A DNA stretch of 64,000 nucleotides from an uncultured bacterium (GTDB lineage: Bacteria > Fidelibacterota > Marinisomatia > Marinisomatales > Marinisomataceae), in assembly GCA_943841495.1 (NCBI GenBank), contig CALSYL010000003.1:80915-144914 (forward strand), in the 5' to 3' direction. This document shows positions 9,582 through 49,329 of the stretch, piece after piece; position 1 is the stretch's first letter; the number at the start of each line of letters is the position of its first letter. Made by a program: the position numbers and the translations under genes. The notes under the pieces were generated by a model, which was not told where the DNA came from, ran no database searches, and was given only the letters and a program-made list of their open reading frames with translations.

Positions 9582-10979
<1,398 letters not shown>

Positions 10980-10983
<4 letters not shown>

Positions 10984-11267
10984 AAAACTTTTTCAAACTA
11001 GAAATCATTACTCCAATCAAAACATTTAGTTTTGATAATGTTTCATATGTGAAATGTCCTGGAGTTGATGGATACTTTGGAATTATGAAAAATCATACCA
11101 ATTCTATAATCAATTTAACGGATGGAACTATATCCATCAAAACTGATAAAGATGAAGTAAGATTTTCATGCTCATACGGCATAGCCGATATTAATTCTGA
11201 TTCTTCTGATGACATTGAAGACAAAGTTCTTCTACTTGTTGAAAATGCAGAAGAATTAGAAAAATAA
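10980..11267 (+). CDS. atpC: F-type ATP synthase F1 subunit epsilon (short form, beta-sandwich only)
   Basis: The GTG start overlaps the atpD TGA (GTGA). The N-terminal [33 protein letters not shown] fits epsilon. At 95 aa it lacks the usual C-terminal helical hairpin. Confidence 0.8.
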
Positions 11268-11284
11268 TTATTAGATTGTTATAG

Positions 11285-13036
11285 ATGACTATTAGAACAC
11301 ATAATTGTGGTGAACTGAATAATAATCATATTGACAAAACTGTAAAACTTTCAGGATGGGTTAATTCGATTCGTACCCATGGTCAGATTATTTTTATTGA
11401 TATTCGTGACAGGTTTGGTAAGACTCAAATTATTCTCAATACAGATAGTTTGGTTGAAACAGGAAAGTCGCTTTCAAATGAAGACGTTATTCATATTACC
11501 GGTAAAGTTATAGCTAGATCTGCAGATTTAATTAATCCAGATTTATCTACAGGACAAGTTGAAGTTATTGTAGAAGAAATAGCTGTTTTAAGCTCAGCAG
11601 AGCCAGTGCCATTAAACATTAATGATAGAGATGCATCATCAGAAGAGCATAGATTAAAATATAGATATTTAGAACTTAGAAATTCTTCTCTTCAAAAGAA
11701 TTTAATTATTAGACATAAGACAGCACAAATCGTAAGAAATTTTTTATCTGATAATAATTTTTTAGAAATTGAAACTCCTGTTTTAATGAAGTCAACACCA
11801 GAAGGTGCAAGAGATTATTTAGTTCCAAGCAGGGTACATAATGGGCAATTTTATGCGTTACCTCAGTCTCCTCAAATGTATAAACAGCTTTTCATGATCT
11901 CAGGCCTAGATAGATATTTTCAAATTGTTAAATGCTTTAGAGATGAAGATTTAAGATCTGACAGACAACCTGAGTTTACTCAAATTGACCTAGAAATGAG
12001 TTTCGTAGATGAAAAAGAGGTAAGAGCGCTAGTAGAAAATTTAATTACAAAAGTCTTTAAAGAAATAATCGATGTCGATATACAAGAATTTCCTGTTTTG
12101 GCATATCAAGATGCTATTGAAAAATATGGAACAGACAAACCAGATTTAAGATTTGAAATGACAATTAACGATTTTAAATCTTTTTCAGATAAATCTGATT
12201 TTAAAGCATTTTCTTCATGTGAAGCTGTAAAAATGGTTTCTGCTAAAAATGCAGATACTTTTTCAAGAAAGGTAATAGATGAGCTTGATAGTTTTGCTCA
12301 ATCTAACGGCGCCAAAGGATTGGCTTGGTTTAAGGTTAATGATAATAATTTAGAGGGAGGAATATCTAAATTTTTTAATGAAGATTTACGTAAAGAAATT
12401 ATTGAAAGCTTTAATCTAGAAAATAATTCTATTTGTTTTATGGTTGGTGATAAGCTTGATAATTCACTTCGTATTTTAGGAAAAGTAAGAAGTAAATTAG
12501 GTGATATGCTTAATCTTAAAAACAATGCATCATTTGCTCCGGTTTGGATAGTGGATTTTCCACTATTTGATTGGAATGAAGATACAGGTCGATTTGATTC
12601 AGTGAATCATCCATTTACCGCTCCTAAAGATTCTGACAAAGATAAGGTAGTTTCTAGTCCTGCAGATATCATTTCTAAAGGTTACGATATAGTAATTAAT
12701 GGGTACGAAGTAGCAGGGGGATCAATAAGAATTCACGATCATGAGCTACAAAAAGAAATTTTTAAAATTATGAATCTATCTGAAAAAGAAATTTCAGAAA
12801 AATTTGGATTTTTTATAGATGCTCTAAAATATGGTACACCACCGCATGGAGGTATTGCTTTTGGTCTAGATAGGCTTGTTATGCTATTGGCTGGAGTAAA
12901 TAATATTAGAGATGTCATTGCATTTCCAAAGACCACATCAGCATCCGCACTTATGGAAGAAGCTCCAAATTACGTTTCAACAGAACAATTAGATGAACTT
13001 GGAATTAAGGTGCTTAGCGATGAAAAAGACGTTTGA
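11285..13036 (+). CDS. aspS: Aspartyl-tRNA synthetase
   Basis: Class II motifs [18 protein letters not shown] and GGSIRIHD...[15 protein letters not shown]-fold N-terminus. Confidence 0.95.
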
Positions 13037-24444: not shown

Positions 24445-27400
24445 CTACCTTACGATAACCATTTTCATGGTTTTATTATAATCACTTTGGCCATCAACTT
24501 TAACTCTTAATTGATAAAAATATACTCCGCTACTGACTTTATCGCCATCATCGTTTTTACCATCCCAGATAGTTGTGTATTGTCCTACAGATTTATCGCC
24601 TTCATCAATTGTTTTAACAAGCTTACCTAGTGTATTGTAGATATGAATTTCTACATCTACCATATTGACCATCATAGATGGTATATCGTATTTAATAGTA
24701 GTTTGATTATTAAATGGATTTGGATAGTTCTGATATAATTTAAAATCATCAGGATTGCTTAGTTGTACCATTCCATTTCCTGCTAATCCATCTTTTGAGA
24801 ACAATTGATAATTTAATTCAATATCATTGGTTATAGCGGCTCCTTCAACAGTAATAATTAGTTGATTATCATTAGATGAAAGGTTACCAAATTCAAATTC
24901 ATAATATTGATTTTCTTGATCAGTATTTTCAAGCACCATGTAACCTTCTTTATTAGAAGCTTTAAAAGTATAAATATTGTTTAAGTTGCTTAGCTCAAAT
25001 CTTCCAGCTGTAGTACCTTCTGGTAATTCAATGATAATTTGATTACCAACAACTTCAGCATCAAATTCAATTGGAATGATTTCTTGTGATTCTTGAGCAA
25101 TTCTTCCTTGTGCTTTAGTCCATAGCCAATTTCTTGAGAATACGCTAATATCATTAATGTCTGCTGTTCCATCTAAGGAAGGCATAGGGTAAGGGCTTGC
25201 TCCACTTGCAGGACCAATATCAACATTTGGCCAAGCACTTACAAATGCATTTAAGTCAGTTACATCGACATCCCAATCACTATCTGAATCACCAAGCAAT
25301 GAGGTATAAGTGTTAAATTCTTTGATTACAAAAGATGATTGATTATCTGCTCCATCTAATGCAACAACTTTCAAATAATAAGTTGTGAAATCATCTAGGG
25401 TTAAATCAGTAAGCTGTAGATTGGTCAAGCCAACATTTTTATATGCAACAATATCTGCAGAGTTGTCATCACCACTAGATCCAATTCCCATAAAGTATGC
25501 TGATATACCTGTATTATCAGACCATCCATCTACTGTTATAGACACTTCTGACGTACTTCGAAGATACGACGAATCGTATATATCGTTTAATGTAACTGTA
25601 CCAGCTGTTGGTCCAGAAGAGTCAAGAAGGAAGCTCACTTCAGACCCAACAGTTTCATTGCCATCATTATCAACTGCTCCTACTTTATAATACCATGTAT
25701 CTCCTTGACTTAATCCTTCATGGATGTAGGAATCAACACCAAATGTTTGTCTGAAAACAAATGTAGTATCTGCCCATGGAGAAGATGAAGGAGAGGGTTC
25801 AAGATGTTCAGAATCAATATTTCCTAATGTCCCTTGACCAAGTAACGTGCTACCATCTGCTGTAAAACTTTCTGTTTGGCTTCCATATACATTATAAGAA
25901 GCAAAATCATCTTCTAGATTTCTATTCCAATATAAACCAATCTTATCTAATGATGGAGTCCATACCGAATTCGTTGAATCATATTCCAGTTCTGCTCCAA
26001 CAGTAACTCCTTGAGGAGCTAAAGGGGATCCAGCAGAATCAAGTTGTCCTGCAGTTAAAGTAAAATTATCAAAAAATGCATAGCCTTGTCCTGCTGTATA
26101 AACATGAATCGCCACTCTAACTTTTGTTCCTGCGTATTGAGTTAAGTCATAAGATCTTTCAGTCCACGCTCCTACAGCTTCTGTAACTGTATCTAATGTT
26201 ACTGTGAAACTCTCTGGAAGAGCAGAACCAGTAGGGGAAAGCATTACTGAATAGTTTTCTTCTTCACCATTCATATTAGTATAAAATTTAATTAAATTAT
26301 CTGTACCAGGTCTAAGCCACAGTTCAGGACTTACTAACCAATCATCTGCAGTGGCACTACTATTCATTCCAAGTCCTGCCATCCAGTGACTACCGTCTGC
26401 AGCACCAAATCCAGCTGTATAATACCACCAACCCCATGAGTCTGAATCATTATTTTCATCAAAGTATGAAAAGGCATGAACATCTCTTCTATTATCTGCC
26501 CATCCATAAGGATTTGTTTCAAACCCTTCTTCCCATAAGGTATCTTGCTGAGCAGTTACCCATATTAGATTTGATTTTGCAACATTATCAGTACTTGAAC
26601 CATCTGAAACTTGTAGTGAGACTGAATAACGTCCTGAGCTTTGGAAGGTATGAGATGGAGACTGCTCTGTACTAGTATTACCATCACCAAAATTCCACAA
26701 CCAACTACTAACATTACCAGTAGATCTATCGCTAAAATTAACAGTTAGTGGAAAAACTCCAGAAAGTTTGTCAGGAGTAAATGCAGCATTTAGTGGTGCA
26801 GTGGATGTAAATCCAGTAGAATAAAATATCCCTCTTCCATGTGTTCCCGCAGCCAGTGCATTATCTGAAGATCTTCTAACGAGCATATCAGTTCTTACGT
26901 TTGCTAATCCATCATTTGATGGATACCAAGTAGGAGATGCAGCTGTGACATCGTCCGATACCCATGTACCTAATTCGGTAGCTAGTATAACTTGGTTATA
27001 ATTTTCAGGATTGTATAATCCCCATCTTACTGGCATATCTGAAAGATCACCTTCAATATCTGTCCAGCCGTTAGAACCGCCTCCACCGACTGTTTCCCAA
27101 ACAGAAACTGCCCCATAGTTTGATATAGTTGCTAAAATTTGATTATCAGAAGCTCCTATATCAATAGATGAAATATATCCCTGCATGCTTGATCCACCTA
27201 TTTCTTCAACAGTATATGATGAAGTGCTTGCATTAGAAATTTTAAAAATTCTACCAGCTGACGTTCCAACAAACAGTACATCACTACTATGAGGAGAGAT
27301 TTTAAAAGCTGAAGCTGTTGAACCTAGGGAAACTTGCATAACTGATTTGTCAGCAAGCGTTGCATAGTTTCTTAATTTTAAAATTGAAGTAGCATCTAAT

Positions 27401-29202
27401 GCAGAGTAAAAAGTTTGAGTATTACCATCTATTGTAGAAGGGTTAATGAAGAAGCCTGTATCTCCACCGTCACTTGTTTCATGATTAGCATAATAACTCC
27501 AAGTCGATCCACCGTTGGTGCTTCTATAAATATTGTTATATGTTGTTGCTGTAAACTGATAATTTGGGTCAACTTGATCAATATGGGTATATGCTCCATC
27601 ACCTCCAACTACAGCATTACCATCTCCAATGCCGGTTCCACCAATTGTCCATGTACCGTTATCTTGCGTACCTCCTATAACATATTCACTGCCAGCATCA
27701 GGATGAAGTGCTACTGAATAGAATTGACTTACATTGTAACCAGTATTTCTATCTGCTAGTGTTGCACCAGCATCGTTTGTATAATAAACACCTCCATCAT
27801 TTGAAAAGATAATTTCATTACTTGTTACAGTTTTAAGATTCTGTTGATCAACATGCATATAAGGATATGTTGAACCTCCGGAATTAGAAACTTGAATCCA
27901 AGAATCACCTCCATCAGTTGATTTAAAAACATCTAACTCTCCTGCATATAAAATGTTTGGATCATTTGGATCTACGCCAAGACTTAAATCATAGCCGGCT
28001 TGTCCGTTAGCGTCTCCTAGAACATTTCCATTGTCATCAACTGGAAATGGATCAGATGTCCCTGCTGTGTATGTCGTCCAGTTTGCACCGCCATCAACAG
28101 TCTTAACAATCCATTGAATTTTTCTAGTATCAGAACTAGCTATCATTGCATAAACATAGTTTGGGTCAGATGGAGCTACTGCGATTATAGTTCTATTCGG
28201 GCTCCCTAAAAATGAGATAGATGCTTTTGTCCAATTTAAGCCATCGTCTGAGCTGAATATATCACCGCCGCCATTACCATAAACATTTGTTCGAGATGCA
28301 GCCCAAATTTTGTTGTCGCTTCCCATATCTAAGTCCATTATTTCATATGCATCACCATCTGTAGAAGCTGTATCCATTACTTGCGACCAAGTTGTGCCAC
28401 CATCTGTTGATCTCCAAAGTCCAGTATATTCTGATCCATGCCATTTACCTTCATAGCGATGACCGCCTACACCAATATATACAACACTTGATCCACCTTC
28501 ATTTCTTACAAGTATATCAGTAACGTAATTAAAATTTTCAGTTGAAGATAAATGTGACCAAGTTGCACCACCGTCAGTTGTTTTCCATAGCCCTAATCCG
28601 CGACTAGCAGTTGAAAAAATACCCATTCTTTCACCAGTACCAACATACATTGTATTGGTGTCATTTGGATCATAGTTAATACTACAAACAGCTAAATTAC
28701 CCCATGTTCCATCTACGCTATTCCAATCTGGATTTGAACTCGTAATATCATTGGTATACCATAGTCCGCCAGATACTCCAGCAGCCCATAGCTTTTTATT
28801 TGAAGAATCATTTGGATCTAATAATAATGCCCTAGTTCGTCCGCCTATAGTATTGGGACCTCTTTCAATCCAATTAACTTCCGTCATTTTTTTAGAATAC
28901 ATTGAGCTAGTTCTTTTTTCTTCAGCTTCATCAATAGCATTTAGAATTCTTTCGGTTGGGATAGTCCCGGTATTCAAGTCATACATCATTAAATAATCAT
29001 GAGCACCTTTAAGATCTGGTCTCAAAGCTTTAGGTAGTTTTTTACTATCCTTATAAGACAATATTTGTTTACTAGCTAAGAACTCATCAATGAACGCTTC
29101 ACGTTCAATTCTTTGATTTTCAAGATAAAAATTTTGTACTGGTTGAAATAGTAAAAATATTGCAATAATAAGTCCAATTGATATGTATGTAATTTTTTTC
29201 AT
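24445..29202 (-). CDS. 1585-aa secreted multidomain protein. Domains in order: signal/anchor, Asp-box (BNR/sortilin-like) beta-propeller region, PKD, choice-of-anchor-J/cleaved-adhesin-like domain, FN3/Ig-like modules, dockerin-like module, Ig-like module, T9SS C-terminal sorting domain
   Basis: About 7 Asp-boxes (TTDGGATWSH, STDGGTTWSQ, SSDDGLNWTK, TVDGGANWTT, STDGGDSWIQ, SNDGGVYY, STNGGSTWSY) between aa ~110-800. PKD signature WNFGDGNTSTEQSPSHTF. LWEEGFE...DDWLVSPELWL...YSVMLSPTG is choice-of-anchor-J-like. The start lies 3 nt downstream of the upstream lipoprotein's stop. Confidence 0.85.
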   Translation of the reverse strand: MKKITYISIGLIIAIFLLFQPVQNFYLENQRIEREAFIDEFLASKQILSYKDSKKLPKALRPDLKGAHDYLMMYDLNTGTIPTERILNAIDEAEEKRTSSMYSKKMTEVNWIERGPNTIGGRTRALLLDPNDSSNKKLWAAGVSGGLWYTNDITSSNPDWNSVDGTWGNLAVCSINYDPNDTNTMYVGTGERMGIFSTASRGLGLWKTTDGGATWSHLSSTENFNYVTDILVRNEGGSSVVYIGVGGHRYEGKWHGSEYTGLWRSTDGGTTWSQVMDTASTDGDAYEIMDLDMGSDNKIWAASRTNVYGNGGGDIFSSDDGLNWTKASISFLGSPNRTIIAVAPSDPNYVYAMIASSDTRKIQWIVKTVDGGANWTTYTAGTSDPFPVDDNGNVLGDANGQAGYDLSLGVDPNDPNILYAGELDVFKSTDGGDSWIQVSNSGGSTYPYMHVDQQNLKTVTSNEIIFSNDGGVYYTNDAGATLADRNTGYNVSQFYSVALHPDAGSEYVIGGTQDNGTWTIGGTGIGDGNAVVGGDGAYTHIDQVDPNYQFTATTYNNIYRSTNGGSTWSYYANHETSDGGDTGFFINPSTIDGNTQTFYSALDATSILKLRNYATLADKSVMQVSLGSTASAFKISPHSSDVLFVGTSAGRIFKISNASTSSYTVEEIGGSSMQGYISSIDIGASDNQILATISNYGAVSVWETVGGGGSNGWTDIEGDLSDMPVRWGLYNPENYNQVILATELGTWVSDDVTAASPTWYPSNDGLANVRTDMLVRRSSDNALAAGTHGRGIFYSTGFTSTAPLNAAFTPDKLSGVFPLTVNFSDRSTGNVSSWLWNFGDGNTSTEQSPSHTFQSSGRYSVSLQVSDGSSTDNVAKSNLIWVTAQQDTLWEEGFETNPYGWADNRRDVHAFSYFDENNDSDSWGWWYYTAGFGAADGSHWMAGLGMNSSATADDWLVSPELWLRPGTDNLIKFYTNMNGEEENYSVMLSPTGSALPESFTVTLDTVTEAVGAWTERSYDLTQYAGTKVRVAIHVYTAGQGYAFFDNFTLTAGQLDSAGSPLAPQGVTVGAELEYDSTNSVWTPSLDKIGLYWNRNLEDDFASYNVYGSQTESFTADGSTLLGQGTLGNIDSEHLEPSPSSSPWADTTFVFRQTFGVDSYIHEGLSQGDTWYYKVGAVDNDGNETVGSEVSFLLDSSGPTAGTVTLNDIYDSSYLRSTSEVSITVDGWSDNTGISAYFMGIGSSGDDNSADIVAYKNVGLTNLQLTDLTLDDFTTYYLKVVALDGADNQSSFVIKEFNTYTSLLGDSDSDWDVDVTDLNAFVSAWPNVDIGPASGASPYPMPSLDGTADINDISVFSRNWLWTKAQGRIAQESQEIIPIEFDAEVVGNQIIIELPEGTTAGRFELSNLNNIYTFKASNKEGYMVLENTDQENQYYEFEFGNLSSNDNQLIITVEGAAITNDIELNYQLFSKDGLAGNGMVQLSNPDDFKLYQNYPNPFNNQTTIKYDIPSMMVNMVDVEIHIYNTLGKLVKTIDEGDKSVGQYTTIWDGKNDDGDKVSSGVYFYQLRVKVDGQSDYNKTMKMVIVR
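24448..24744 (-). other. T9SS type-A C-terminal sorting domain (Por_Secre_tail / FlgD-Ig-like), aa 1487-1585 of the giant protein
   Basis: FKLYQNYPNPFNNQTTIKYDIP...IHIYNTLGKLVKTI...WDGKNDDGDKVSSGVYFYQLRV is the hallmark pattern of this sorting domain. Confidence 0.8.
25120..25299 (-). other. Dockerin-like module (duplicated Ca-binding F-hand), aa 1302-1361 of the giant protein
   Basis: Repeat 1, DSDSDWDVDVTDLNAFVSAW, has Asp at loop positions 1, 3, 5, 9 and 12. Repeat 2, (SL)DGTADINDISVFSRNW, keeps positions 5, 9 and 12. The start-to-start spacing of ~34 aa matches dockerins. Confidence 0.6.
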
Positions 29203-29205
29203 TTT

Positions 29206-30246
29206 TTACTCTACTATAATATATCCATTTACTGATTGATTTAAAGTTATATCGCTTCCATCTACATCTAATATTTGTTGAGAAGATGTATTTGAATCAA
29301 AATTAATTGAAATACTTTCTCCGCTAGCTCCATTGACAGTAAAGTTAATAGTAGCTAAAGTGCCATCTCCATCTGCGCTAGGTTTATCTGATGAAAGAGA
29401 TGATGTATAAATTGATAACTGTGTTGTAGAACCATCTGTTGAAGTTTCAGTCACAAGCAAAGGATCAGTATTACCTTGTAAAAAGTCTCCATCGTCAATA
29501 TTGCCTAAAGTAAGTTTTGTATTATCCCAAATTAAAATTGCTTGAGCTGCCGCAACGCCAGTCGCGCCTAAAATATTCCAATTAATAGTTACTGAATTTC
29601 CAGATGTTGCAGAAGTATATTTACTATCAATAACAAATGCAGGAGTTTGAACATCGCTAACATTGATATAGCTTGAAAGAACATTAGTATCTGTTCCACC
29701 GTCACCAACAACTGAAAGTGTTACATCATAAGCTCCAGCAGTGGTGTAAGTATGCACAGGATTTTCATCAGTGCTTGTATTGCCATCACCAAAGTCCCAA
29801 AGAGAAGTATTGTACCTCACTGAAGAATTAGAAAATTCAACTCTCAAATCTTTTGTTCCAGAGGTAGGCTCACCAGTAAATAGGGCAGCTGGAGGAGTTG
29901 CAGTTACAGTTACATAATTACTTTTTGTTTCAACATCTACACCATTCGGCCCCGTTGCAGTGAGCGACACAGTATAAGTACCAGCTTCATTATAAGTGTA
30001 TTGTGCTAATATTCCTGAAGCATCTAAAGTACCATCTCCATTAAAATCCCAATCATGTGAAGTAGTATTAGTAGAAGTAGATGTAAAATTAACTATTAAA
30101 GGGGTACTGCCACTTAATGGTGTTGCAGAAAAATTAGCTACCGGAGGATCGTTGTTTGGCCCTGGACCTGTATCATCTCCACCTCCACCGCCACCGCAGT
30201 TAATTAGGATGAGTGCAATAAAGATTGGAAGTAATTTTCTGAACAT
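29206..30246 (-). CDS. Lipoprotein with poly-Gly linker, two PKD domains and a C-terminal cohesin-like domain
   Basis: Lipobox LILINC (Cys17) followed by GGGGGGDD. PKD signatures WDFNGDGTLD...YTVSLTA and WDFGDGNTSTDENPVHTY...YDVTLSV. The C-terminal 144 aa is cohesin-like. Confidence 0.8.
   Translation of the reverse strand: MFRKLLPIFIALILINCGGGGGGDDTGPGPNNDPPVANFSATPLSGSTPLIVNFTSTSTNTTSHDWDFNGDGTLDASGILAQYTYNEAGTYTVSLTATGPNGVDVETKSNYVTVTATPPAALFTGEPTSGTKDLRVEFSNSSVRYNTSLWDFGDGNTSTDENPVHTYTTAGAYDVTLSVVGDGGTDTNVLSSYINVSDVQTPAFVIDSKYTSATSGNSVTINWNILGATGVAAAQAILIWDNTKLTLGNIDDGDFLQGNTDPLLVTETSTDGSTTQLSIYTSSLSSDKPSADGDGTLATINFTVNGASGESISINFDSNTSSQQILDVDGSDITLNQSVNGYIIVE
29209..29640 (-). other. 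Cohesin-like domain, aa 203-346 of the lipoprotein
   Basis: SGNSVTINWNILGATGVAAAQAILIWDNTKLTLGNIDDGDFLQG...GDGTLATINFTVNGASGESISINF...VNGYIIVE parallels the cohesin pattern (G.tV.V.v...g..g....l.yD...L....v..Gd......GdGtlatl.F.v......). Confidence 0.6.
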
Positions 30247-30307: not shown

Positions 30308-31390
30308 TTATAAAAGAGTTAAAGAGATGTTCCTATCCATTAAATATTGTAATAGAAAATCAAAACATTTTTTATTTGAGCCAACAATTTCTGGAGGATG
30401 AACTCCTTTTTTATCCCATAAATTATTAGCTAGCATGTTTACAGTTGCTGTAGCAGTATAACCGGTTGTTCGCGCCATGGAAGAAGATGTAGTATCCTCA
30501 TCAAATTCATCATAAAGATGATATTTAATATTTTTTGCACTACTATATATATTAATATCTAAAACAGTAAATTCTTTTTCGTTCTTGCCTAATTCCCAAT
30601 CTTTAAAAAGATTAGTTGCTGTTTGCTTGATATTTTCTTCATTAAACAGCCCTTTGTCATATAGTGATTGCATCAATTCAGCATGTCCTGGATAACGTAA
30701 GGTTTTTTCCTTCATATTAGGGATATGAGTCATTGTGGTTAGCAATGATCTTAGTCCATCCGTATTAAATGCTTCAAGTTTTCCAACATCTAAAATATCA
30801 AGAATTTCAATTTCAGACAAAGCAGGTTTAATAACTATTTTTGAATCTATCATCATTCTAGCTGGTCTAGTATATTCTTCAATAACATCTATTGGAGAAA
30901 AAGGAGCTTTATAATAATAAGGGGGAATGGGATTCTTAGGAAGTCCGCCTACAACATATTCAAAAGCTTCTACTTCCAGCTGAGAATTCCAATACCCTAA
31001 AACAAAGTTAGGTATTCCAGGTGCAACACCTGCATCAACTACAGCACAGACATCATTTGTTACAGCGAGATCATGGAGCATTAAAACATTTTCAGGAGAA
31101 AAAGAGATATCAACAACATCTTTTCCACTTTCAATTATTGTCTTAAGTGCATCAAAACCTAAAAATCCTGGAACAGCAAGTAGAACAATATCAGCATCTT
31201 TAATCCATTTACTTAAACTTTCTTTATTTGTTACATCTAACTGATGAGTATGAATGTGGTTTAGTTCAGATTTAATTTTCTGTAGTAAGTTTATATTGGA
31301 GTCTGCTAAGTGAAGGTCAAAATTTCTAGATAAATCATGTGCCATTGTTTTTCCAACAAGACCGGCACCAATTTGAAAGATTTTTTTCAT
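30308..31390 (-). CDS. Saccharopine dehydrogenase-family NAD(P) oxidoreductase
   Basis: Rossmann motif MKKIFQIGAGLVGK, with central and C-terminal regions typical of the Sacchrp_dh family. The first 23 codons of the listed ORF (to 31459) are the antisense-free read-through of tRNA-Asp and are excluded. Confidence 0.7.
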   Translation of the reverse strand: MKKIFQIGAGLVGKTMAHDLSRNFDLHLADSNINLLQKIKSELNHIHTHQLDVTNKESLSKWIKDADIVLLAVPGFLGFDALKTIIESGKDVVDISFSPENVLMLHDLAVTNDVCAVVDAGVAPGIPNFVLGYWNSQLEVEAFEYVVGGLPKNPIPPYYYKAPFSPIDVIEEYTRPARMMIDSKIVIKPALSEIEILDILDVGKLEAFNTDGLRSLLTTMTHIPNMKEKTLRYPGHAELMQSLYDKGLFNEENIKQTATNLFKDWELGKNEKEFTVLDINIYSSAKNIKYHLYDEFDEDTTSSSMARTTGYTATATVNMLANNLWDKKGVHPPEIVGSNKKCFDFLLQYLMDRNISLTLL

Positions 31391-31400
31391 TGAAAATTTG

Positions 31401-31474
<74 letters not shown>

Positions 31475-35433: not shown

Positions 35434-36315
35434 ATGAAATCTATCTTAATTACCAATCTAGTTGCAGATATGAAGCTTCAAGGATTTTATTTATGCATTG
35501 AAAAGAAAGTTCAAAAAAAAAGAGATGGTTCGCCTTACTTAAACTTGCTACTTCAAGATAAGTCAGGATTAATTAGAGCTAGAATTTGGGACAAAGTTCA
35601 AACATTTTCAAAAAAGTTTGAAAGTGGCGATCCAGTAGCGGTGAAAGGATCTACCTACCAGTTTGGTGAAAGTTTGATGATTAGAGTTGAGAATATTTCA
35701 AAAGCGAATGAAGAAAAATATAAAAAATTTGGATTTAAATCTTCGGACTTAATTCCTGTTTCCAAAAAGAATCCTAATGAACTATGGAAAATATTAGCAA
35801 AAGAGGTTAATGGGATATCTAAAAGTCATTTTAAAAAATTAACAAAAAATATTTTATCAGAACATAAAGATAAGTTCAAAATATATCCTGCAAGCATATC
35901 TTATCATTACAATTATCAGAGTGGATTAATTGAACAAACTGTATCATTACTAAAAATTGCTAAACAAATTGGTGTACATTATGATATTGATATTGACTTG
36001 CTTGCTACCGGTGCTTGTTTACATCAAATTGGAAAACTATATTCGATAAATCTAGGATCGTCTTTTGCAAAGTCAAATCATAAGGCGCTTGTTGGAAACG
36101 CTATTCTTTCAAGGGATATAGTAAACAAATATATTTCTGAAATTAAAAATTTTCCGGAAGATGATAAGCTGAAACTAGAACATTTAATTTTATCATATCA
36201 AGGTAGGAAAGAATGGCAAAGTCCTGTTGAGCCTCAAATTATTGAAGCGGTTTTATTGCATTCAATAAATTTAATGGATTCAAGAGTTAATTTTATGAAG
36301 CAGGATGAATTTTAA
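35434..36315 (+). CDS. OB-fold plus HD-domain protein (YhaM-like 3'-5' exoribonuclease family)
   Basis: N-terminal OB-fold region (FYLCIEKKVQKKRDGSPYLNLLLQDKSG) and an HD-like region (ACLHQIGK, LLHSINLMDS). Confidence 0.6.
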   Translation: MKSILITNLVADMKLQGFYLCIEKKVQKKRDGSPYLNLLLQDKSGLIRARIWDKVQTFSKKFESGDPVAVKGSTYQFGESLMIRVENISKANEEKYKKFGFKSSDLIPVSKKNPNELWKILAKEVNGISKSHFKKLTKNILSEHKDKFKIYPASISYHYNYQSGLIEQTVSLLKIAKQIGVHYDIDIDLLATGACLHQIGKLYSINLGSSFAKSNHKALVGNAILSRDIVNKYISEIKNFPEDDKLKLEHLILSYQGRKEWQSPVEPQIIEAVLLHSINLMDSRVNFMKQDEF

Positions 36316-37930
36316 ATCTAAGCTTCTTTTTCTAATTTGTTCATTAAGCGTATCAAATGGACAAGAGGTTATTCCGTTTGATATTTCAAGTCAATTTGCA
36401 GTGCCAATAAGTAACAACCAATTAATTTGGAATACTGATCGGTCCTTTAAAAAACTTTTGATTGATAGATCAACCAAAAATTTCAGACAAAAATTTACAA
36501 ATTTAACTTTTGAAGAATTGCCCAACGATTCAACTTACGTGAAAAGTAAATTTATATACGAGTTTGGCGATTATGGCTTTGATAAGCTTAGTGTTGGATT
36601 GAAAAAGCATTCAAAAAATAATAATTTTGAATTTACTGGCATGAAAAAAAGTTTTTTTGGTCAATACTCTGAATTTGCTAATTCAGAAACACCGCCATTG
36701 AGCTTGTTCTATCAGTTTGACTACTCTAAGAGCTTTGAAAGAAGTAAAATTTATTCTTCATTAGGGTATTTCAGAGAAAATTCAAATTTCCTTTTTGATT
36801 CATCGTTAGATAGCAATTACTCTGAACCAAGTAATGAATTTTCTGATTTTATTTCTTTAACCTTGGGAAATATTTTTAGTAAAAATAATTTTAATTTTGA
36901 TTTACAATTAAATCATATAAGTAAATACAAATCGTCACTAATAAATGAGTATAATATTAATAGTAAATATGATTTAGATAGAAATAGGTTTGTAGCTGAA
37001 ATACACAAAGATAATTTTTTATTTTTAAATATTATTCTTAATAATAGTTTTTATAATGATAAAAAATCATTCAAAAGATTTGCATTAAATTCTTTAACTA
37101 TAACTCGTCAAAACTATAATTTTTCTGTTCCAACAGGAAAAAATTACCCCGCAGGAGAATTGATATATGGTGTTGATTTATTTGAAGATCATATCAAGCC
37201 TAATATTTATTATAAAAATATTTTTGGAAATCTCGATGTAGTATTTAAGACTAGAAATCAACATTCAATAGTCCTCATGAACACTTTGGATTATATTGAA
37301 TCAGAAGAAGTTTTAATTGCCAATGATCAATTTAGTGGTAATGAAGTTGAGGAGTGGAAAAATTTAACGCTCACTTATTACTTTAATACCAAAACAGATT
37401 TTTCAGCTTCTTTGAAATATGTAAAAGCTAATAATTTTATTATACCGGAGGCAGATAGATATAAATTTATAAACGATGACATGTTATCACTTCAGACGAA
37501 GATTGAAATTCCATTCAAATATGGTATAATAAATTTTAATCATTCTTATAATTTTGATGATAGTTTAATTAGTTCAAATAGAGCTCACATTCTTAATTTA
37601 GATTATCTTTACAGCTTATCTTTGATTGAAAATAATCTGGGAATTGATGGAAAACTTAGTTTTCAGTATATGTCAAAAAATAATTCAGACTATAGTTTTA
37701 ATTATTTTAAGAATATGCCTGAAAGGAATAACAATATTAACAGTGATGAATATATTAATATTGCTCTGAATACAGAGATTGCAATATCCGATGTACTACT
37801 AACTATCCGACTCCAAAATGCTTTAGGAAAATTTTACTCAAATGAAGACTACTCATTAGAAAATCATGAATTTTTTAATCCAATGAGCAGTCTATTAACA
37901 TTTGGAATCATCTGGGAATTTGATGACTAA
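36305..37930 (+). CDS. Uncharacterised secreted protein, probable outer-membrane beta-barrel (541 aa)
   Basis: Signal peptide MNFKSKLLFLICSLSVSNGQ and alternating aromatic/polar strand-like pattern throughout. The aromatic-rich C-terminus is FGIIWEF(DD). I recognise no family motif. Confidence 0.5.
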   Translation: MNFKSKLLFLICSLSVSNGQEVIPFDISSQFAVPISNNQLIWNTDRSFKKLLIDRSTKNFRQKFTNLTFEELPNDSTYVKSKFIYEFGDYGFDKLSVGLKKHSKNNNFEFTGMKKSFFGQYSEFANSETPPLSLFYQFDYSKSFERSKIYSSLGYFRENSNFLFDSSLDSNYSEPSNEFSDFISLTLGNIFSKNNFNFDLQLNHISKYKSSLINEYNINSKYDLDRNRFVAEIHKDNFLFLNIILNNSFYNDKKSFKRFALNSLTITRQNYNFSVPTGKNYPAGELIYGVDLFEDHIKPNIYYKNIFGNLDVVFKTRNQHSIVLMNTLDYIESEEVLIANDQFSGNEVEEWKNLTLTYYFNTKTDFSASLKYVKANNFIIPEADRYKFINDDMLSLQTKIEIPFKYGIINFNHSYNFDDSLISSNRAHILNLDYLYSLSLIENNLGIDGKLSFQYMSKNNSDYSFNYFKNMPERNNNINSDEYINIALNTEIAISDVLLTIRLQNALGKFYSNEDYSLENHEFFNPMSSLLTFGIIWEFDD

Positions 37931-39993
37931 AGTTGATATTCAACTGTAAGATTCATGCTTCTTCCAGGCTCTGGATATCCTATAGTTGAAATATATTCTT
38001 CATCAAGAAGATTATCTACAGTCAAATTAGCTCTAATCATATTTTGACTACTTCCTAACGTTATGTTTTTTGAAAATGCTAAACTAACTAATCCAAAAGA
38101 TGCATCGTTTACTGGCTCTGCCCAATCAGATCCATATTGTAAAATTCTATCTCCTGTTAGTTTATATACTAAAGAATAGTTTGTAGAGCTATTTTGTTTG
38201 AAAGTAAATAATAAGCTAGCTGAACTATCAGGAACATACAGTAATTTTTCGTCCATGTCTTTATCTAAAGAGTCATAAAGATTGTATGTTAATTGCATTT
38301 GAACTCTATCAAACTCTTTCAAGTATTGCAAATTGTATGATGTTCTTTCAGCGGAAGATACATTAATTGGAACATATTTAAAGGATTCATTAGGCTGCCA
38401 TAATATTAAATTTTTATAATCTTTGAATGAGGCAGTTAATTTTATTTTTCCTAATAAAGATTGATTGGAAACAGAAAGAGCCATATACTCACTTTCTTCT
38501 GGTTTTAATTCTGGATTTCCTCCGCTATATAATCCATCTGGCCAAAATAAATCGTTCATTGTTGGAAATTGAAATGAGGATCCAATATCTAAATTAAAAT
38601 CAAAAGAACTAGTTGTCTTGTTAAATTGATTCAGCGCTTCAAACCCTAGATTAAACGTTGATTTCTCATTTTCTTCTCTAGAATCAAATCGTAATGATGG
38701 TGATATCTTGTAATCATTTTCAAGATTGACATAATTACCAGTTAATGATAATGAAGTTGTTTTAAGCTCGCGTTTTTCTAAATCACTGCTATCCACTCTT
38801 TCGGTTTTTTGATTAAACAAAACTTCATAGTTAAGTGATTCAGTTATGATTTGTTTACCTGTTAATCCAAAAGAAGTGTAATCTAAATCATGTTCACTAA
38901 AAACAGGAAAAGATGCATTAGAGTCATCATAAACCTGATCATTGCTTGAACGATTCATTTGTATTTTTAAAAAACCTTTATCAAAGAACTTATTGAAAGA
39001 TAGTGCAAATAATTCAAAATCATCAGTTCTGGTTGCATTAGGGGATGGAAAGCTAGTGCTTCCTGATGCTCCTCGTATATTTTCTGTTTTTAAAGTGAAT
39101 ATATTAACGACAAAATCATCGCTAATAACAAATTGTCTATCCATTGCCATAAAAAATTGGTCTAAATAATTATTAACTCTTTTAACTTGTTTGCCGGTTG
39201 CATCTTCGTATTTAAAATCTCCATCGTAAGATGTTTTTCCAAAAACTATATTTCTTTTTGATGTTTTTCTATCAATAGAATAATTGGCCCCAAATTGTGA
39301 AAATCCATAATCTCCAGTCCCATAGAAAACGTTATTATTTTCTATGCTATTATTAATATTAAGCGATCCATCAATTGATCCTGATCCATACTTAGTTCCT
39401 GAATTAAGTCTGTAGTTTATAGATTTTAGAGCAAATGATGGCAAAGTAGAAAGATCTGCTTGTCCATTCATAGCATCTGTTAAGTCTACTCCATTGTAAA
39501 GTACTTTAGTATGCCTAGCAAAGCCTCCATCAAATGAAGCTGATGTCACGCCGGCATAACCTCCGTATGTTCTCATTTCTAACGAAGGTATTTGGTTTAA
39601 AGATCCTCCTCTAGAATAAGTTCCTAAATTATTATAAGAAGTTTTATTTCGTAAATATTCATTTTTATTTCTTCCATAAACATCCACTGTTTCAAGTGAA
39701 ATATTATCAAAAAGCATTGTAACATATTTAGTTAATCTTTCATTCGGTTTGATAATTAGGTTTTCGAATCCAATTCTCTTAAATAGTACATCAGATTCAT
39801 TGTTAACGTTAATTATAAATCCACCATTCTCATCAGACATAGTCCAATTTGTATTTTCTAAATTTGCATTAATTTCTTCAATTATTACATGAGAGATTGG
39901 TTCTCCTGAAATATCTTTTATTACACCAGAAAAAGATTGTCCAAGAAGATTGGTGAGAAGTATAGCAAACAGTATATATGATTTTTGTATCAT
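37927..39993 (-). CDS. btuB: TonB-dependent receptor with N-terminal CarboxypepD_reg domain; cobalamin/corrinoid receptor inferred from the upstream riboswitch
   Basis: CarboxypepD_reg-like N-terminal segment GVIKDISGEPISHVII, a plug region and a long beta-barrel ending LTVEYQL. A B12 riboswitch occupies its 5' leader. Confidence 0.8.
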   Translation of the reverse strand: MIQKSYILFAILLTNLLGQSFSGVIKDISGEPISHVIIEEINANLENTNWTMSDENGGFIINVNNESDVLFKRIGFENLIIKPNERLTKYVTMLFDNISLETVDVYGRNKNEYLRNKTSYNNLGTYSRGGSLNQIPSLEMRTYGGYAGVTSASFDGGFARHTKVLYNGVDLTDAMNGQADLSTLPSFALKSINYRLNSGTKYGSGSIDGSLNINNSIENNNVFYGTGDYGFSQFGANYSIDRKTSKRNIVFGKTSYDGDFKYEDATGKQVKRVNNYLDQFFMAMDRQFVISDDFVVNIFTLKTENIRGASGSTSFPSPNATRTDDFELFALSFNKFFDKGFLKIQMNRSSNDQVYDDSNASFPVFSEHDLDYTSFGLTGKQIITESLNYEVLFNQKTERVDSSDLEKRELKTTSLSLTGNYVNLENDYKISPSLRFDSREENEKSTFNLGFEALNQFNKTTSSFDFNLDIGSSFQFPTMNDLFWPDGLYSGGNPELKPEESEYMALSVSNQSLLGKIKLTASFKDYKNLILWQPNESFKYVPINVSSAERTSYNLQYLKEFDRVQMQLTYNLYDSLDKDMDEKLLYVPDSSASLLFTFKQNSSTNYSLVYKLTGDRILQYGSDWAEPVNDASFGLVSLAFSKNITLGSSQNMIRANLTVDNLLDEEYISTIGYPEPGRSMNLTVEYQL

Positions 39994-40217: not shown

Positions 40218-40745
40218 ATGTCAAAATATCAATCTAATCGTTTAAACAGCTTAACATTAATTTTAAATGCTAGTTATTTACCACTAGGTGTATGTAGTTC
40301 AAAAAGAGCTATTTGCCTATATTTTCTTGATAAGGTTGATATTTTAATGAATTATGATGAACGTATTCATTCACCTTCTTTACAAATGAAGATTCCAAGT
40401 GTAATAAAGCTCAAAAAATATGTATCCTTTAATAGCTTAGATATAGTTTTAAATAGAAAAAATTTACTAATGAGAGATAATTCATGTTGCCAATATTGCG
40501 GTTCAAAATCAAGCTTAACCATTGATCACATTGTCCCTAAGCAAAAAGGTGGGCAAGATACATGGGAAAATTTAATTATTGCATGTTCGCCATGTAATTC
40601 AAAAAAAGGGAATAGAACTCCATATGAAGCTGAAATGAAATTGATGAAAATCCCAAAAAAACCAAATAGATTTATGTATTATAATCAATATATTAGTCAA
40701 AGAAATGAAGGATGGAAAGACTACCTCTTTCAAAATAAAAATTAA
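40218..40745 (+). CDS. HNH endonuclease-domain protein (175 aa)
   Basis: CCQYCGSKSSLTIDHIVPKQKGGQDTWENLIIACSPCNSKKGN is a complete CxxC...H-N-H...CxxC zinc-finger HNH motif. Confidence 0.85.
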   Translation: MSKYQSNRLNSLTLILNASYLPLGVCSSKRAICLYFLDKVDILMNYDERIHSPSLQMKIPSVIKLKKYVSFNSLDIVLNRKNLLMRDNSCCQYCGSKSSLTIDHIVPKQKGGQDTWENLIIACSPCNSKKGNRTPYEAEMKLMKIPKKPNRFMYYNQYISQRNEGWKDYLFQNKN

Positions 40746-48117: not shown

Positions 48118-49329
48118 ATGCTTCTAAAAAAATCTTATTTGTTTGGCATATCTATTTTTGTAGCTATTGCTTCAGCAATCTACATTAATTTTTTATCTTT
48201 AAATATCAATGAAGATAAGATTGAAGAAAAAAAAATTGAAAATGAGATCAAGCTTGAGACGTTTGAAGAGGGTGTAGATGTATCAATTGAAAATGTCATA
48301 ATATATCCAAATCAATATGATAAAAATTCAATTTATATTGATACTGAAATTTTGAATATTAATGGAGAAGGAAATGTTCAAATAGCATTAACAAATGACA
48401 ACAATTTAGTTGCATCGAGCGAAGTTTTTTTAAAAAAAAATAAATCAAATATTTCTCAATCATTTCTTATTTCTGACAATATAGACTTCAATAAAGATTT
48501 TGAGATTAGTATCTCTGCTATAAATTCTGAAAAAGATATTTCTAACAATAGATATTCCTTTAGAAGTTCTTTAAAAATTCAAAAGCCTAAAGTCGCTATT
48601 TTGACTGGAAAATTAAATTTTTATACTCCATTTATTCTAGATAATATTAATGCTGATTTTTCGCATTATTATCCTAATCCGCTAAATGGGGATTTTGATA
48701 TAACAAATTTCTGGTTTAATAATTATGATATTATTATTCTAGATAACTTTCCAATCAAACCAGTATCAGATAAGTGGCTTAAACTTTTTTTAAAGAAAAT
48801 TTATAGTGATAAAAGTTCGCTAATTATTAATTCTAATCTTGAAAAAGATTTCGTTTCACTAGAAAATTTTTTGCCAATATTTGGTTTGAAATTAAAAAAT
48901 GAGAGTGAGCTTCAAGCTTTACAAGGATTTACAAGATTTTCTAAAGACTCTTTTAAATCTTCACTTATTTTGACAGATGATTTTTATAATTTATCAAAAA
49001 ATAATTTAGAAGATTTTCGGGAAACAGTTGAGTGGATTTTATTGGATAGCGATGTAAAGTATTCTTTTTTTCTTGGGAGTAAAAATAATACAATCGATAA
49101 ACAGCTTTTATTATACGGATATTCAAATGTTCTTGATAGCGATATACAAAATTTAAGTGCTCAAATATTCAAAGATCGACAAATAATAGAAGATTTCAAG
49201 TTGTTATATAATCCAATTTCAGGATACTATTTTAGTGGAGTACAATTTCAAGAATATGGAGAATATCTAATAAATATTATGAATGGAAGCAAATTAATTG
49301 ATACTATAAATGTTAATTTATATGATTAA
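48118..49329 (+). CDS. Hypothetical N-terminally anchored protein (403 aa)
   Basis: A clean ORF in the operon context tsaD-(this)-serS with a single N-terminal TM. I recognise no motif. Confidence 0.5.
   Translation: MLLKKSYLFGISIFVAIASAIYINFLSLNINEDKIEEKKIENEIKLETFEEGVDVSIENVIIYPNQYDKNSIYIDTEILNINGEGNVQIALTNDNNLVASSEVFLKKNKSNISQSFLISDNIDFNKDFEISISAINSEKDISNNRYSFRSSLKIQKPKVAILTGKLNFYTPFILDNINADFSHYYPNPLNGDFDITNFWFNNYDIIILDNFPIKPVSDKWLKLFLKKIYSDKSSLIINSNLEKDFVSLENFLPIFGLKLKNESELQALQGFTRFSKDSFKSSLILTDDFYNLSKNNLEDFRETVEWILLDSDVKYSFFLGSKNNTIDKQLLLYGYSNVLDSDIQNLSAQIFKDRQIIEDFKLLYNPISGYYFSGVQFQEYGEYLINIMNGSKLIDTINVNLYD

Follow-up and report, generated by a model that had tools for sequence, protein, structure and literature searches.

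How does a marine bacterium keep a very large secreted protein at its surface? In dark and oxygen-poor ocean waters the Marinimicrobia (SAR406) rank among the most abundant uncultured bacteria, and for genomes as small as theirs the encoding of giant surface proteins is a large investment. The question is posed by two neighboring minus-strand genes, here called A and B, in a stretch of 64,000 nucleotides (nt) from an uncultured member of the Marinisomataceae (assembly GCA_943841495.1, contig CALSYL010000003.1, positions 80,915 to 144,914 of the forward strand), referred to below as the window. An earlier note on this locus proposed that A encodes a lipoprotein with a cohesin and B a giant type IX secretion system (T9SS) cargo with a dockerin, the two forming a surface-tethering module. 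The analysis presented here leads to a qualified form of that proposal, according to which A and B would constitute a non-cellulosomal, non-covalent cohesin-dockerin surface tether for T9SS cargo, a reading that we consider about evenly balanced between right and wrong. The two open reading frames (ORFs) and the gap of 3 nt between them were found as described:

29206..30246, minus strand: gene A, a predicted cohesin lipoprotein of 346 amino acids (aa) with a signal peptide, lipobox Cys, Gly-rich linker, two PKD domains and a cohesin
24445..29202, minus strand: gene B, a predicted secreted giant protein of 1585 aa with a C-terminal cassette
29203..29205, minus strand: A-B spacer of 3 nt, the order being the TAA stop of A, AAA, then the ATG of B

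The first step towards an answer is the C-terminus of A, for which the assignment as a cohesin, closest to the type II cohesins of anchoring and adaptor scaffoldins, is solid at the level of sequence. The Pfam Cohesin model (PF00963) scored 35.0 bits against the whole protein and 38.6 bits against the isolated domain, compared with a gathering score of 24.1, and its alignment spans model positions 8 to 138 of 139. Orthologues number more than 100 for A, nearly all with a precomputed PF00963 match, and more than 100 full-length Marinimicrobia proteins for B. The best matches to B bear the names Candidatus Marinimicrobia or Neomarinimicrobiota, which points to a SAR406-type source for the window. 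When a profile of A's cohesin plus relatives (A7) was run against solved structures in the PDB, more than 25 solved cohesins were matched at E<=1e-3, the best being 3l8q_A (7e-16); the type II cohesins 1qzn, 5g5d/5k39 and 2b59_A were matched at about 1e-7 and the classic type I cohesins only at 0.09 to 0.6. The cohesin claim of the earlier note is thus borne out by the family model, by the orthologues and by solved structures alike, and the remainder of A is also laid out as it had described, with the LILINC lipobox read by eye, the poly-Gly linker and the two PKD domains:

30196..30246, minus strand: A aa 1-17, signal peptide ending in the lipobox-like LINC (MFRKLLPIFIALILINC), read from the sequence
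30142..30195, minus strand: A aa 18-35, Gly/Asp/Pro-rich linker (GGGGGGDDTGPGPNNDPP), read from the sequence
29659..30141, minus strand: A aa 36-196, two PKD domains (Pfam PKD_4, E 3e-25, two stretches; PKD matches in the PDB)
29227..29616, minus strand: A aa 211-340, cohesin (PF00963)

The N-terminus of A reads MFRKLLPIFIALILINC followed by GGGGGGDD. Its lipobox, LILINC before GGGGGG, has Asn at position -1, which is non-canonical, and orthologues have LINC or LISC (read by eye); lipidation at Cys17 may be expected from this arrangement. The linker is kept as a poly-Gly stretch in two of the related loci (L001 and L002), and the PKD domains probably act as a spacer. Pfam and NCBIfam scans of A returned no SLH or LPXTG match.

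The second step concerns the part of B that could be the counterpart of this cohesin. It lies close to the C-terminus and is followed by two further domains:

25105..25308, minus strand: B aa 1299-1366, dockerin-like duplicated loop-helix module (internal duplication, family profile and AlphaFold2 [AF2] model)
25255..25290, minus strand: calcium loop 1, B aa 1305-1316 (DSDSDWDVDVTD), Asp at positions 1, 3, 5, 9 and 12
25150..25185, minus strand: loop 2, B aa 1340-1351 (MPSLDGTADIND), degenerate; register from the hhalign repeat alignment
24739..25089, minus strand: B aa 1372-1488, predicted beta-sandwich, probably cohesin-derived, the middle domain of the cassette (hhalign, Foldseek and AF2)
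24448..24726, minus strand: B aa 1493-1585, T9SS type A C-terminal sorting domain (TIGR04183, FlgD_ig and CHU_C)

The Asp residues of loop 1, DSDSDWDVDVTD, occupy all five canonical ligand positions, as had been noted, and are invariant in orthologues. The two halves of the module are an internal duplication (hhalign 95.2%, P 2.8e-8) with the loops 35 residues apart in true register; the spacing of about 34 aa given previously had to be corrected, the two strings quoted for it actually starting 39 aa apart. The second of these strings, DGTADINDISVFSRNW, starts at B aa 1344, and the Asp of its 'DG' is position 5 of loop 2, for which the family consensus is xPxPDGxxDxxD. The module segment is near-invariant across orthologues of 55-99% identity, and in the window its calcium-loop pattern occurs a single time among the ORFs of 100 aa or longer from all six frames. 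The most conserved residues of the module are aromatic (W29, F60, W64 and W66 in model numbering). In the AF2 model of module plus sandwich, helices are placed at residues 19-28 and 54-69, each starting from loop position 10.

A relationship to dockerins emerges from a profile of 60 diverse members of the module family (A3), whose highest-ranking PDB matches were about 20 dockerin chains (8ajy_B, 6.9e-4; 2y3n_B, 1.5e-3), with EF-hand proteins close behind. A generic EF-hand or thrombospondin-type repeat was considered and rejected, since A3 ranks EF-hand proteins below dockerins and the number of repeats in the module is fixed at two. Other searches were negative or fell below threshold: the PDB search with the B segment alone gave no dockerin and only a chance match to REV1, the orthologue-only module profile (A1) had zero matches in the PDB, NCBIfam dockerin_GC scored 12.2 bits on B against a cutoff of 29, a precomputed match to Pfam Dockerin_1 was present in 0 of 120 B orthologues, and the same model reached at best 20.3 bits, under its threshold of 22.9, at the first repeat of distant cassette relatives. 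The module is accordingly best described as dockerin-like: its homology is that of the loop-helix repeat, and membership of the Pfam family is not demonstrable.

The third step is the setting of the module, which in B is the first part of a conserved cassette consisting of the dockerin-like module, a probably cohesin-derived beta-sandwich and a T9SS tail. The module in B does not stand alone, being followed by a second, itself probably cohesin-derived, part of the same cassette. When the orthologue profile was searched exhaustively with HMMER, the cassette/module family turned up in 532 protein cluster representatives; a word-indexed protein search with the module profile gave only 3 fragment matches. 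The distance from module to C-terminus is nearly always 210-290 aa (75 matches of more than 600 aa) and is 217 aa in B, and the proteins that bear it, whose N-terminal parts are unrelated in architecture, are 900 to more than 4700 aa long. The middle domain measures about 125 aa in aligned tails and about 117 aa in B. In a separate protein, P0307 (1799 aa), the module profile matched 17 separate stretches, covering only profile positions 21-61, and this protein looks like an extended series of partial loop-helix repeats and not like a cassette.

Several comparisons bear on the origin of the middle domain. As a family, it aligned with the cohesins of partner lipoproteins in hhalign with 95.4-95.7% (P ~1e-8, 90 columns), while the sorting domain and PKD, used as controls, gave 5.5% and 0.2%, and Pfam Cohesin passed its threshold in the middle domain of two distant cassette members (24.8 and 29.3 bits). 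The shortened sub-type found in B gave 29.5% (P 5.7e-4) in an unchanged register; Pfam Cohesin had no match on B itself, and the middle-domain profile (A4) matched no solved cohesin in the PDB by sequence. The middle domain is thus probably cohesin-derived, the signal being weak in B's own short sub-type. The only A4 matches in the PDB at E <0.01 were 9c39_G and 9mt4_P, from a phage tail tube protein (E 0.003, ~63 residues), probably a chance beta-sandwich resemblance.

Structure prediction by AF2 of the module plus sandwich, as a 195-aa unit with a diverse alignment of 56 sequences, returned a nine-strand sandwich with a predicted local distance difference test (pLDDT) score of 90.1, 95-97 within the module, and a predicted template-modeling (pTM) score of 0.87. 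Because this pTM was reached by a two-domain construct, the mutual arrangement of the domains is fixed in the model, and module and sandwich are predicted to form one rigid unit, referred to below as the dyad. The module alone, modeled with a shallow alignment of close orthologues, gave an unusable pLDDT of 55. Among the 50 best PDB matches from Foldseek, cohesins account for at least 11 chains, including 2w1n, 2jh2, 2o4e, 4fl4_B, 3fnk, 4u3s_A, 2vo8, 5k39_A, 3l8q and 2y3n_A; the TM-scores are modest, and other sandwiches (YcnI, p53 and DsbD-alpha) score alongside the cohesins.

The description of B as a giant T9SS-type protein holds. The tail scored 23.7 bits with TIGR04183 (cutoff 23), while FlgD_ig (PF13860, 41.5 bits) and CHU_C (PF13585, 28 bits) both pass Pfam thresholds; PF18962 gave 23.3-25 bits on sorting tails, below its threshold of 27 bits. 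The cassette profile also matches the sorting domains of PorU, PG93 and 8glj in the PDB. These matches support B as a T9SS-type cargo, which would be exported by this route.

The fourth step is whether the association of a cohesin gene with a cassette gene extends beyond the window. With cassette sub-family A6, 40 genome loci were gathered, a set biased towards Marinimicrobia: almost all are metagenome-assembled genomes of Marinimicrobia, Neomarinimicrobiota or Fidelibacterota, and CAZIIM01 and CAJJBS01 contribute two loci each. A locus was counted as evaluable when the 5' end of the giant gene and its neighbor were both on the contig (n=15), and neighbors were searched with a cohesin hidden Markov model (HMM) built from the orthologues of A's cohesin and the partner cohesins of L003 and L005. 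A cohesin gene adjoins the cassette gene in 11 of the 15 evaluable loci (the window, L001-L007, L035, L036 and L044), or in 7 of 10 once orthologues are merged, which makes the linkage of the two genes stronger than the earlier note could have known. The paired loci range from 31 to 55% in guanine-plus-cytosine (GC) content and carry unrelated cargos of 943 to 3033 aa. Conversely, 11 of the 12 cohesin-HMM matches at E<1e-5 in the fetched flanks adjoin a cassette gene, the remaining one lying 2.9 kb off.

The individual pairs differ considerably. P0242 (1207 aa, with a penicillin amidase downstream) has, 4 nt upstream, a protein with PKD and a domain 38.6% identical to A's cohesin; P0253 (3033 aa; DUF5122, Laminin_G, Big_5 and Big_12) is preceded at ~700 nt by a 219-aa Pfam-positive cohesin protein; and unannotated small genes 22 nt downstream of P0264 (on a contig of 55% GC) and 44 nt upstream of P0277 encode full-length cohesins (E 2e-13 and 4e-13, respectively). 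In L035, L036 and L044 the cohesin HMM found a full-length cohesin upstream of the cassette gene, and at one paired locus the gene order is reversed. The A-B order is retained in orthologous loci at 55% and 60% identity, which says little alone because the whole neighborhood is syntenic there; as a general explanation, mere synteny was rejected, the pairing recurring at other loci with other flanking genes and cargos. Translational coupling, as suggested earlier, can be read only from the 3-nt spacing of A and B, and the corresponding gap in relatives varies from ~4 to ~700 nt.

Across lineages the partner cohesins share only 20-30% identity, and every partner protein has a hydrophobic signal peptide ending in Cys (read by eye), the other lipobox-type ends being LLSC, SIGC, FYSC, FMGC, LFGC and IWSC. 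A separate observation on the small partner lipoproteins is a motif, (Y/F/I)(D/E)NP(L/F/V)D, located ~6-14 residues past the lipid Cys (for example, YDNPLDL, YENPFDV, FDNPLDV and IENPFDS; sources L005:385-1044, L007:3179-3742, L035:3730-4287, L036:4178-4735, L044:7483-8040 and L037:5714-6649), where A instead has GGGGGGDD…NNDPP; this ENP/DNP-type motif might be a sorting or surface-export signal.

Taken together, these elements suggest the following course of events for the tether. A would be exported and lipidated at Cys17, its Gly-rich linker and two PKD domains holding the type II-like cohesin off the membrane. B would pass through the inner membrane via Sec and through the outer membrane via the T9SS, which would recognize the C-terminal sorting domain, with the dyad, a putatively calcium-binding dockerin-like module packed on the cohesin-derived sandwich, lying just ahead of that domain. 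After export, the dyad would plug into the cohesin of surface-exposed A much as clostridial X-module-dockerins do into type II cohesins, so that the BNR-propeller giant would be kept on the cell and not lost to seawater. Other cassette giants could use the same or sister cohesin lipoproteins.

Several observations weigh against such a tether: (i) in loop 2, MPSLDGTADIND, positions 1 and 3 are occupied by Met and Ser, Asp being left only at 5, 9 and 12, and the dockerin geometry previously claimed thus applies to the duplicated loop-helix and the ligands of loop 1 but not to loop 2, where the canonical ligands at positions 1 and 3 are missing; (ii) Pfam Dockerin_1 (PF00404), the model that the earlier note had proposed as a check on B, gave no match in whole B (E<=1) or in the isolated 71-aa segment (E<=10); (iii) the alignment between A3 and the dockerins covers only profile positions 2-35, the first repeat, and kinship with dockerins is therefore marginal, coming from the family profile and from that repeat only; (iv) the module already has a predicted partner in cis, itself probably cohesin-derived, and because of this origin and the predicted rigid packing, it competes with the proposed partner in trans; (v) at four evaluable loci (L016, L031, L032 and L034) the cohesin HMM detected no cohesin neighbor; and (vi) in a mirror-tree comparison, the cohesin correlated with the module at r 0.82 and with the sorting domain at r 0.83, so that there is no signal of co-variation beyond shared ancestry. 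The mirror-tree result does not discriminate among the tether and its rivals. At one of the four loci, L016, we noted a lipoprotein-like ORF of 344 aa (10709-11740, minus strand; MKKKLIVPILAVAVLAFFGMSC followed by EDSGE…) on the other strand, some 460 nt downstream of the cassette gene, negative with the cohesin HMM.

The best-surviving rival takes point (iv) at face value: the module would bind only its own sandwich, forming a calcium-stabilized pedestal ahead of the sorting domain, and the lipoprotein would have another ligand, an explanation that is plausible, if on balance doubtful. Such a pedestal might aid folding, provide spacing from the cleavage or attachment site or be recognized by the secretion machinery, and the adjacency of the genes might then reflect co-regulated surface proteins or the common descent of two cohesin-type domains. 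It agrees with the AF2 model of one rigid unit, in which context alone the module is confidently predicted, with the near-constant presence of the sandwich in the cassette and the constant distance of the module from the C-terminus, with the aromatic character of the most conserved module residues, as expected of a buried interface, with the homology of the middle domain to the partner cohesin and with the four loci that have no cohesin neighbor. It leaves unexplained, however, why a lipoprotein cohesin is kept beside the cassette gene across divergent lineages and unrelated cargos, and tight packing in cis need not preclude binding in trans, since known X-module-dockerin dyads combine the two (PDB 2b59). 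The tether hypothesis is concrete and cheaply testable, but it is built on remote homology and prediction.

A second rival has the cargos binding each other head to tail in trans, so that chains or a surface lattice would form with the lipoprotein as a membrane-bound primer. The cassette does combine plug and socket-like domain types, some of its middle domains are still full Pfam cohesins, several cassette proteins can occur per genome (as in the two genomes with two loci each), and cassette genes outnumber adjacent cohesin genes. We nevertheless judge it improbable: AF2 favors the compact arrangement in cis, and the sandwich of B's sub-type is a shortened, degenerate cohesin with a weak signal (29.5%). 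It is also quite improbable that the lipoprotein faces the periplasm and transiently holds its neighbor's cassette before or during T9SS export as a dedicated chaperone. Many loci have about one cohesin gene for each cassette gene, a tight pairing typical of such chaperones, but PKD spacers with a terminal cohesin are typical of surface-displayed proteins, dockerin folding normally requires extracellular calcium levels and some cassette genes have no neighboring cohesin gene. Disfavored, and very improbable, is the absence of any functional link, with conserved gene order alone making A and B neighbors and the Asp-rich segment being no more than a generic calcium-binding loop, for although the window neighborhood is wholly syntenic in L001 and L002 and Pfam Dockerin is negative, the adjacency recurs with different flanking genes and cargos, once in reverse order, and the module is a conserved, duplicated domain in 532 clusters.

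The tether, if real, would have its nearest counterparts in the clostridial anchors formed by type II cohesins and X-module-dockerins, such as the CipA X-DocII-SdbA CohII complex of C. thermocellum (2b59) and the ScaA/ScaB system of A. cellulolyticus (3l8q and 4u3s). The likeness lies in the A-type cohesin profile, which matches type II cohesins best, in the module of B, predicted to sit rigidly on an adjacent beta-sandwich, and in the proposed role, in which a cohesin anchored in the envelope would hold a large secreted protein. The differences are that the sandwich of B is C-terminal to the module, reversing the order, and is apparently cohesin-derived and not an Ig-like X module; that the second calcium loop of B is degenerate; that B would leave by the T9SS, with a sorting domain retained beyond the dyad; and that clostridial anchors are SLH or sortase proteins, whereas A would be a Gram-negative lipoprotein. 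Because of its lipobox-type signal and the missing SLH or LPXTG match, the A-B pair is an analogue and not a member of the clostridial anchoring systems, and, unlike in clostridial cellulosomes, neither a scaffoldin with tandem cohesins nor a cellulase context is seen here.

The second comparison is with the GH84/GH33 cohesin-dockerin toxin complexes of C. perfringens (PDB 2jh2, 2w1n, 2o4e, 2vo8 and 2ozn). These likewise use single cohesin and single dockerin-type modules on unrelated proteins, with no cellulose degradation, and their cohesins are among the best structural matches to the predicted sandwich of B in Foldseek. They are, however, Gram-positive secreted enzymes with Pfam-detectable modules, whereas the modules described here have diverged much further, form part of a cassette that ends in a T9SS tail and have a lipoprotein as their genetic partner. 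In Porphyromonas gingivalis, the PorU sortase cleaves the sorting domain, and the cargo is covalently attached to anionic lipopolysaccharide (LPS). Both cases involve a large surface protein with a type A sorting domain and the need for the cargo to be kept on the cell; retention in P. gingivalis is covalent via LPS, while the retention proposed here would be non-covalent, by protein-protein contact with a cohesin lipoprotein.

That cohesin and dockerin modules occur outside cellulosomes is known (Peer et al. 2009, as cited in PMC8542988). In the Cloacimonadota, a cellulosome-like system has been inferred in silico for 'Ca. Stygibacter' (PMC8542988), which, as a member of the FCB group, has dockerin-bearing secreted proteins, cohesins and a T9SS-type C-terminal domain for surface attachment. 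There, a 3755-aa tandem-cohesin scaffoldin bears the sorting domain and the enzymes bear C-terminal dockerins (PMC8542988), whereas here the cargo bears the module, the cohesin-like domain and the sorting domain, its partner is a small neighboring lipoprotein and no scaffoldin is seen. Within the library searched, no paper was found linking SAR406, Marinimicrobia or Fidelibacterota with cohesin, dockerin or T9SS. What appears to be new is the fixed cassette, its wide use on unrelated giants and its genetic pairing with small cohesin lipoproteins.

The rest of B, on the N-terminal side of the cassette, comprises the following features:

29131..29202, minus strand: B aa 1-24, probable N-terminal Sec-type signal or anchor (MKKITYISIGLIIAIFLLFQPVQN), read from the sequence
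26803..28881, minus strand: B aa 108-800, BNR/sortilin-type beta-propeller region of ~700 aa (sub-threshold matches)
26578..26754, minus strand: B aa 817-875, PKD domain (PF18911, E 3.5e-17)
26062..26535, minus strand: B aa 890-1047, choice-of-anchor J domain (NF038128, 55.6 bits, cutoff 30)

The propeller scored 56 bits with NCBIfam NF045728, a glycosylhydrolase family, under its cutoff of 175 bits, and matched 6p2m_A (1e-8) and the BNR glycosyl hydrolase 3b7f (6e-3) in the PDB. In view of this sub-threshold similarity, the earlier statement that the pair has no carbohydrate-active context cannot be affirmed. Between the choice-of-anchor J domain and the dockerin-like module, B has a stretch with no domain assignment.

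The window has a GC content of ~30%, and A and B are surrounded by housekeeping genes (ATP synthase, AspRS, SecA, SerRS, ribosomal protein S1, UvrD, YceG and FUR). The GC content of A and B (window 26001-30000) is 0.365-0.381, compared with ~0.30 in the flanks, which could result from their Gly/Asp/Thr/Ser-rich composition or from a different origin. A promoter and terminator scan found no terminator-like site on the minus strand between A and B, and nothing in it exceeded shuffled expectation, so operon structure is neither supported nor opposed. Upstream of A, a tRNA-Asp (GTC) at 31400-31474 (minus strand) overlaps the 5' end of a TTG-started ORF (30308-31459), the first residues of which (…ACQAGGRGFESR…) are the translated T-arm of the tRNA; this saccharopine-dehydrogenase-like gene in fact probably starts with the ATG at ~31390 (MKKIFQIG…), and the minus-strand order would therefore be tRNA-Asp, dehydrogenase, A, B. 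Elsewhere in the window, a stand-alone HNH endonuclease ORF (40218-40745, plus strand; PF01844, E 1e-17) lies amid housekeeping genes and adjoins a TonB-dependent receptor-like ORF (37927-39993, minus strand), and two plus-strand ORFs, 36305-37930 (541 aa) and 48118-49329 (403 aa), have no Pfam match at E<=1e-5; in L001 and L002, an ORF of 526-532 aa with no recorded Pfam match occupies the same position as the former. Among the scanned ORFs of the 64-kb window, no T9SS machinery (SprA/Sov, PorV, PorU or GldKLMN) was seen.

To conclude, A and B offer a cohesin/dockerin-like pair that is compact, highly divergent and open to direct testing, for which two small recombinant fragments would do. 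We think it rather unlikely, but worth stating, that cassette and cohesin lipoprotein form a general protein-based means of retaining T9SS cargo in Marinimicrobia and FCB relatives, as an alternative to covalent LPS attachment, and that cargos might chain onto the lipoprotein as primer and so build an outer coat, each cassette having both a plug and a socket. If the tether itself is true, it would extend cohesin-dockerin anchoring from Gram-positive cellulosomes to a Gram-negative setting of lipoprotein and T9SS, the portable C-terminal cassette, with its 532 protein clusters, would flag a surface-displayed proteome, and the pair would explain how SAR406 cells hold very large secreted proteins in dilute seawater.

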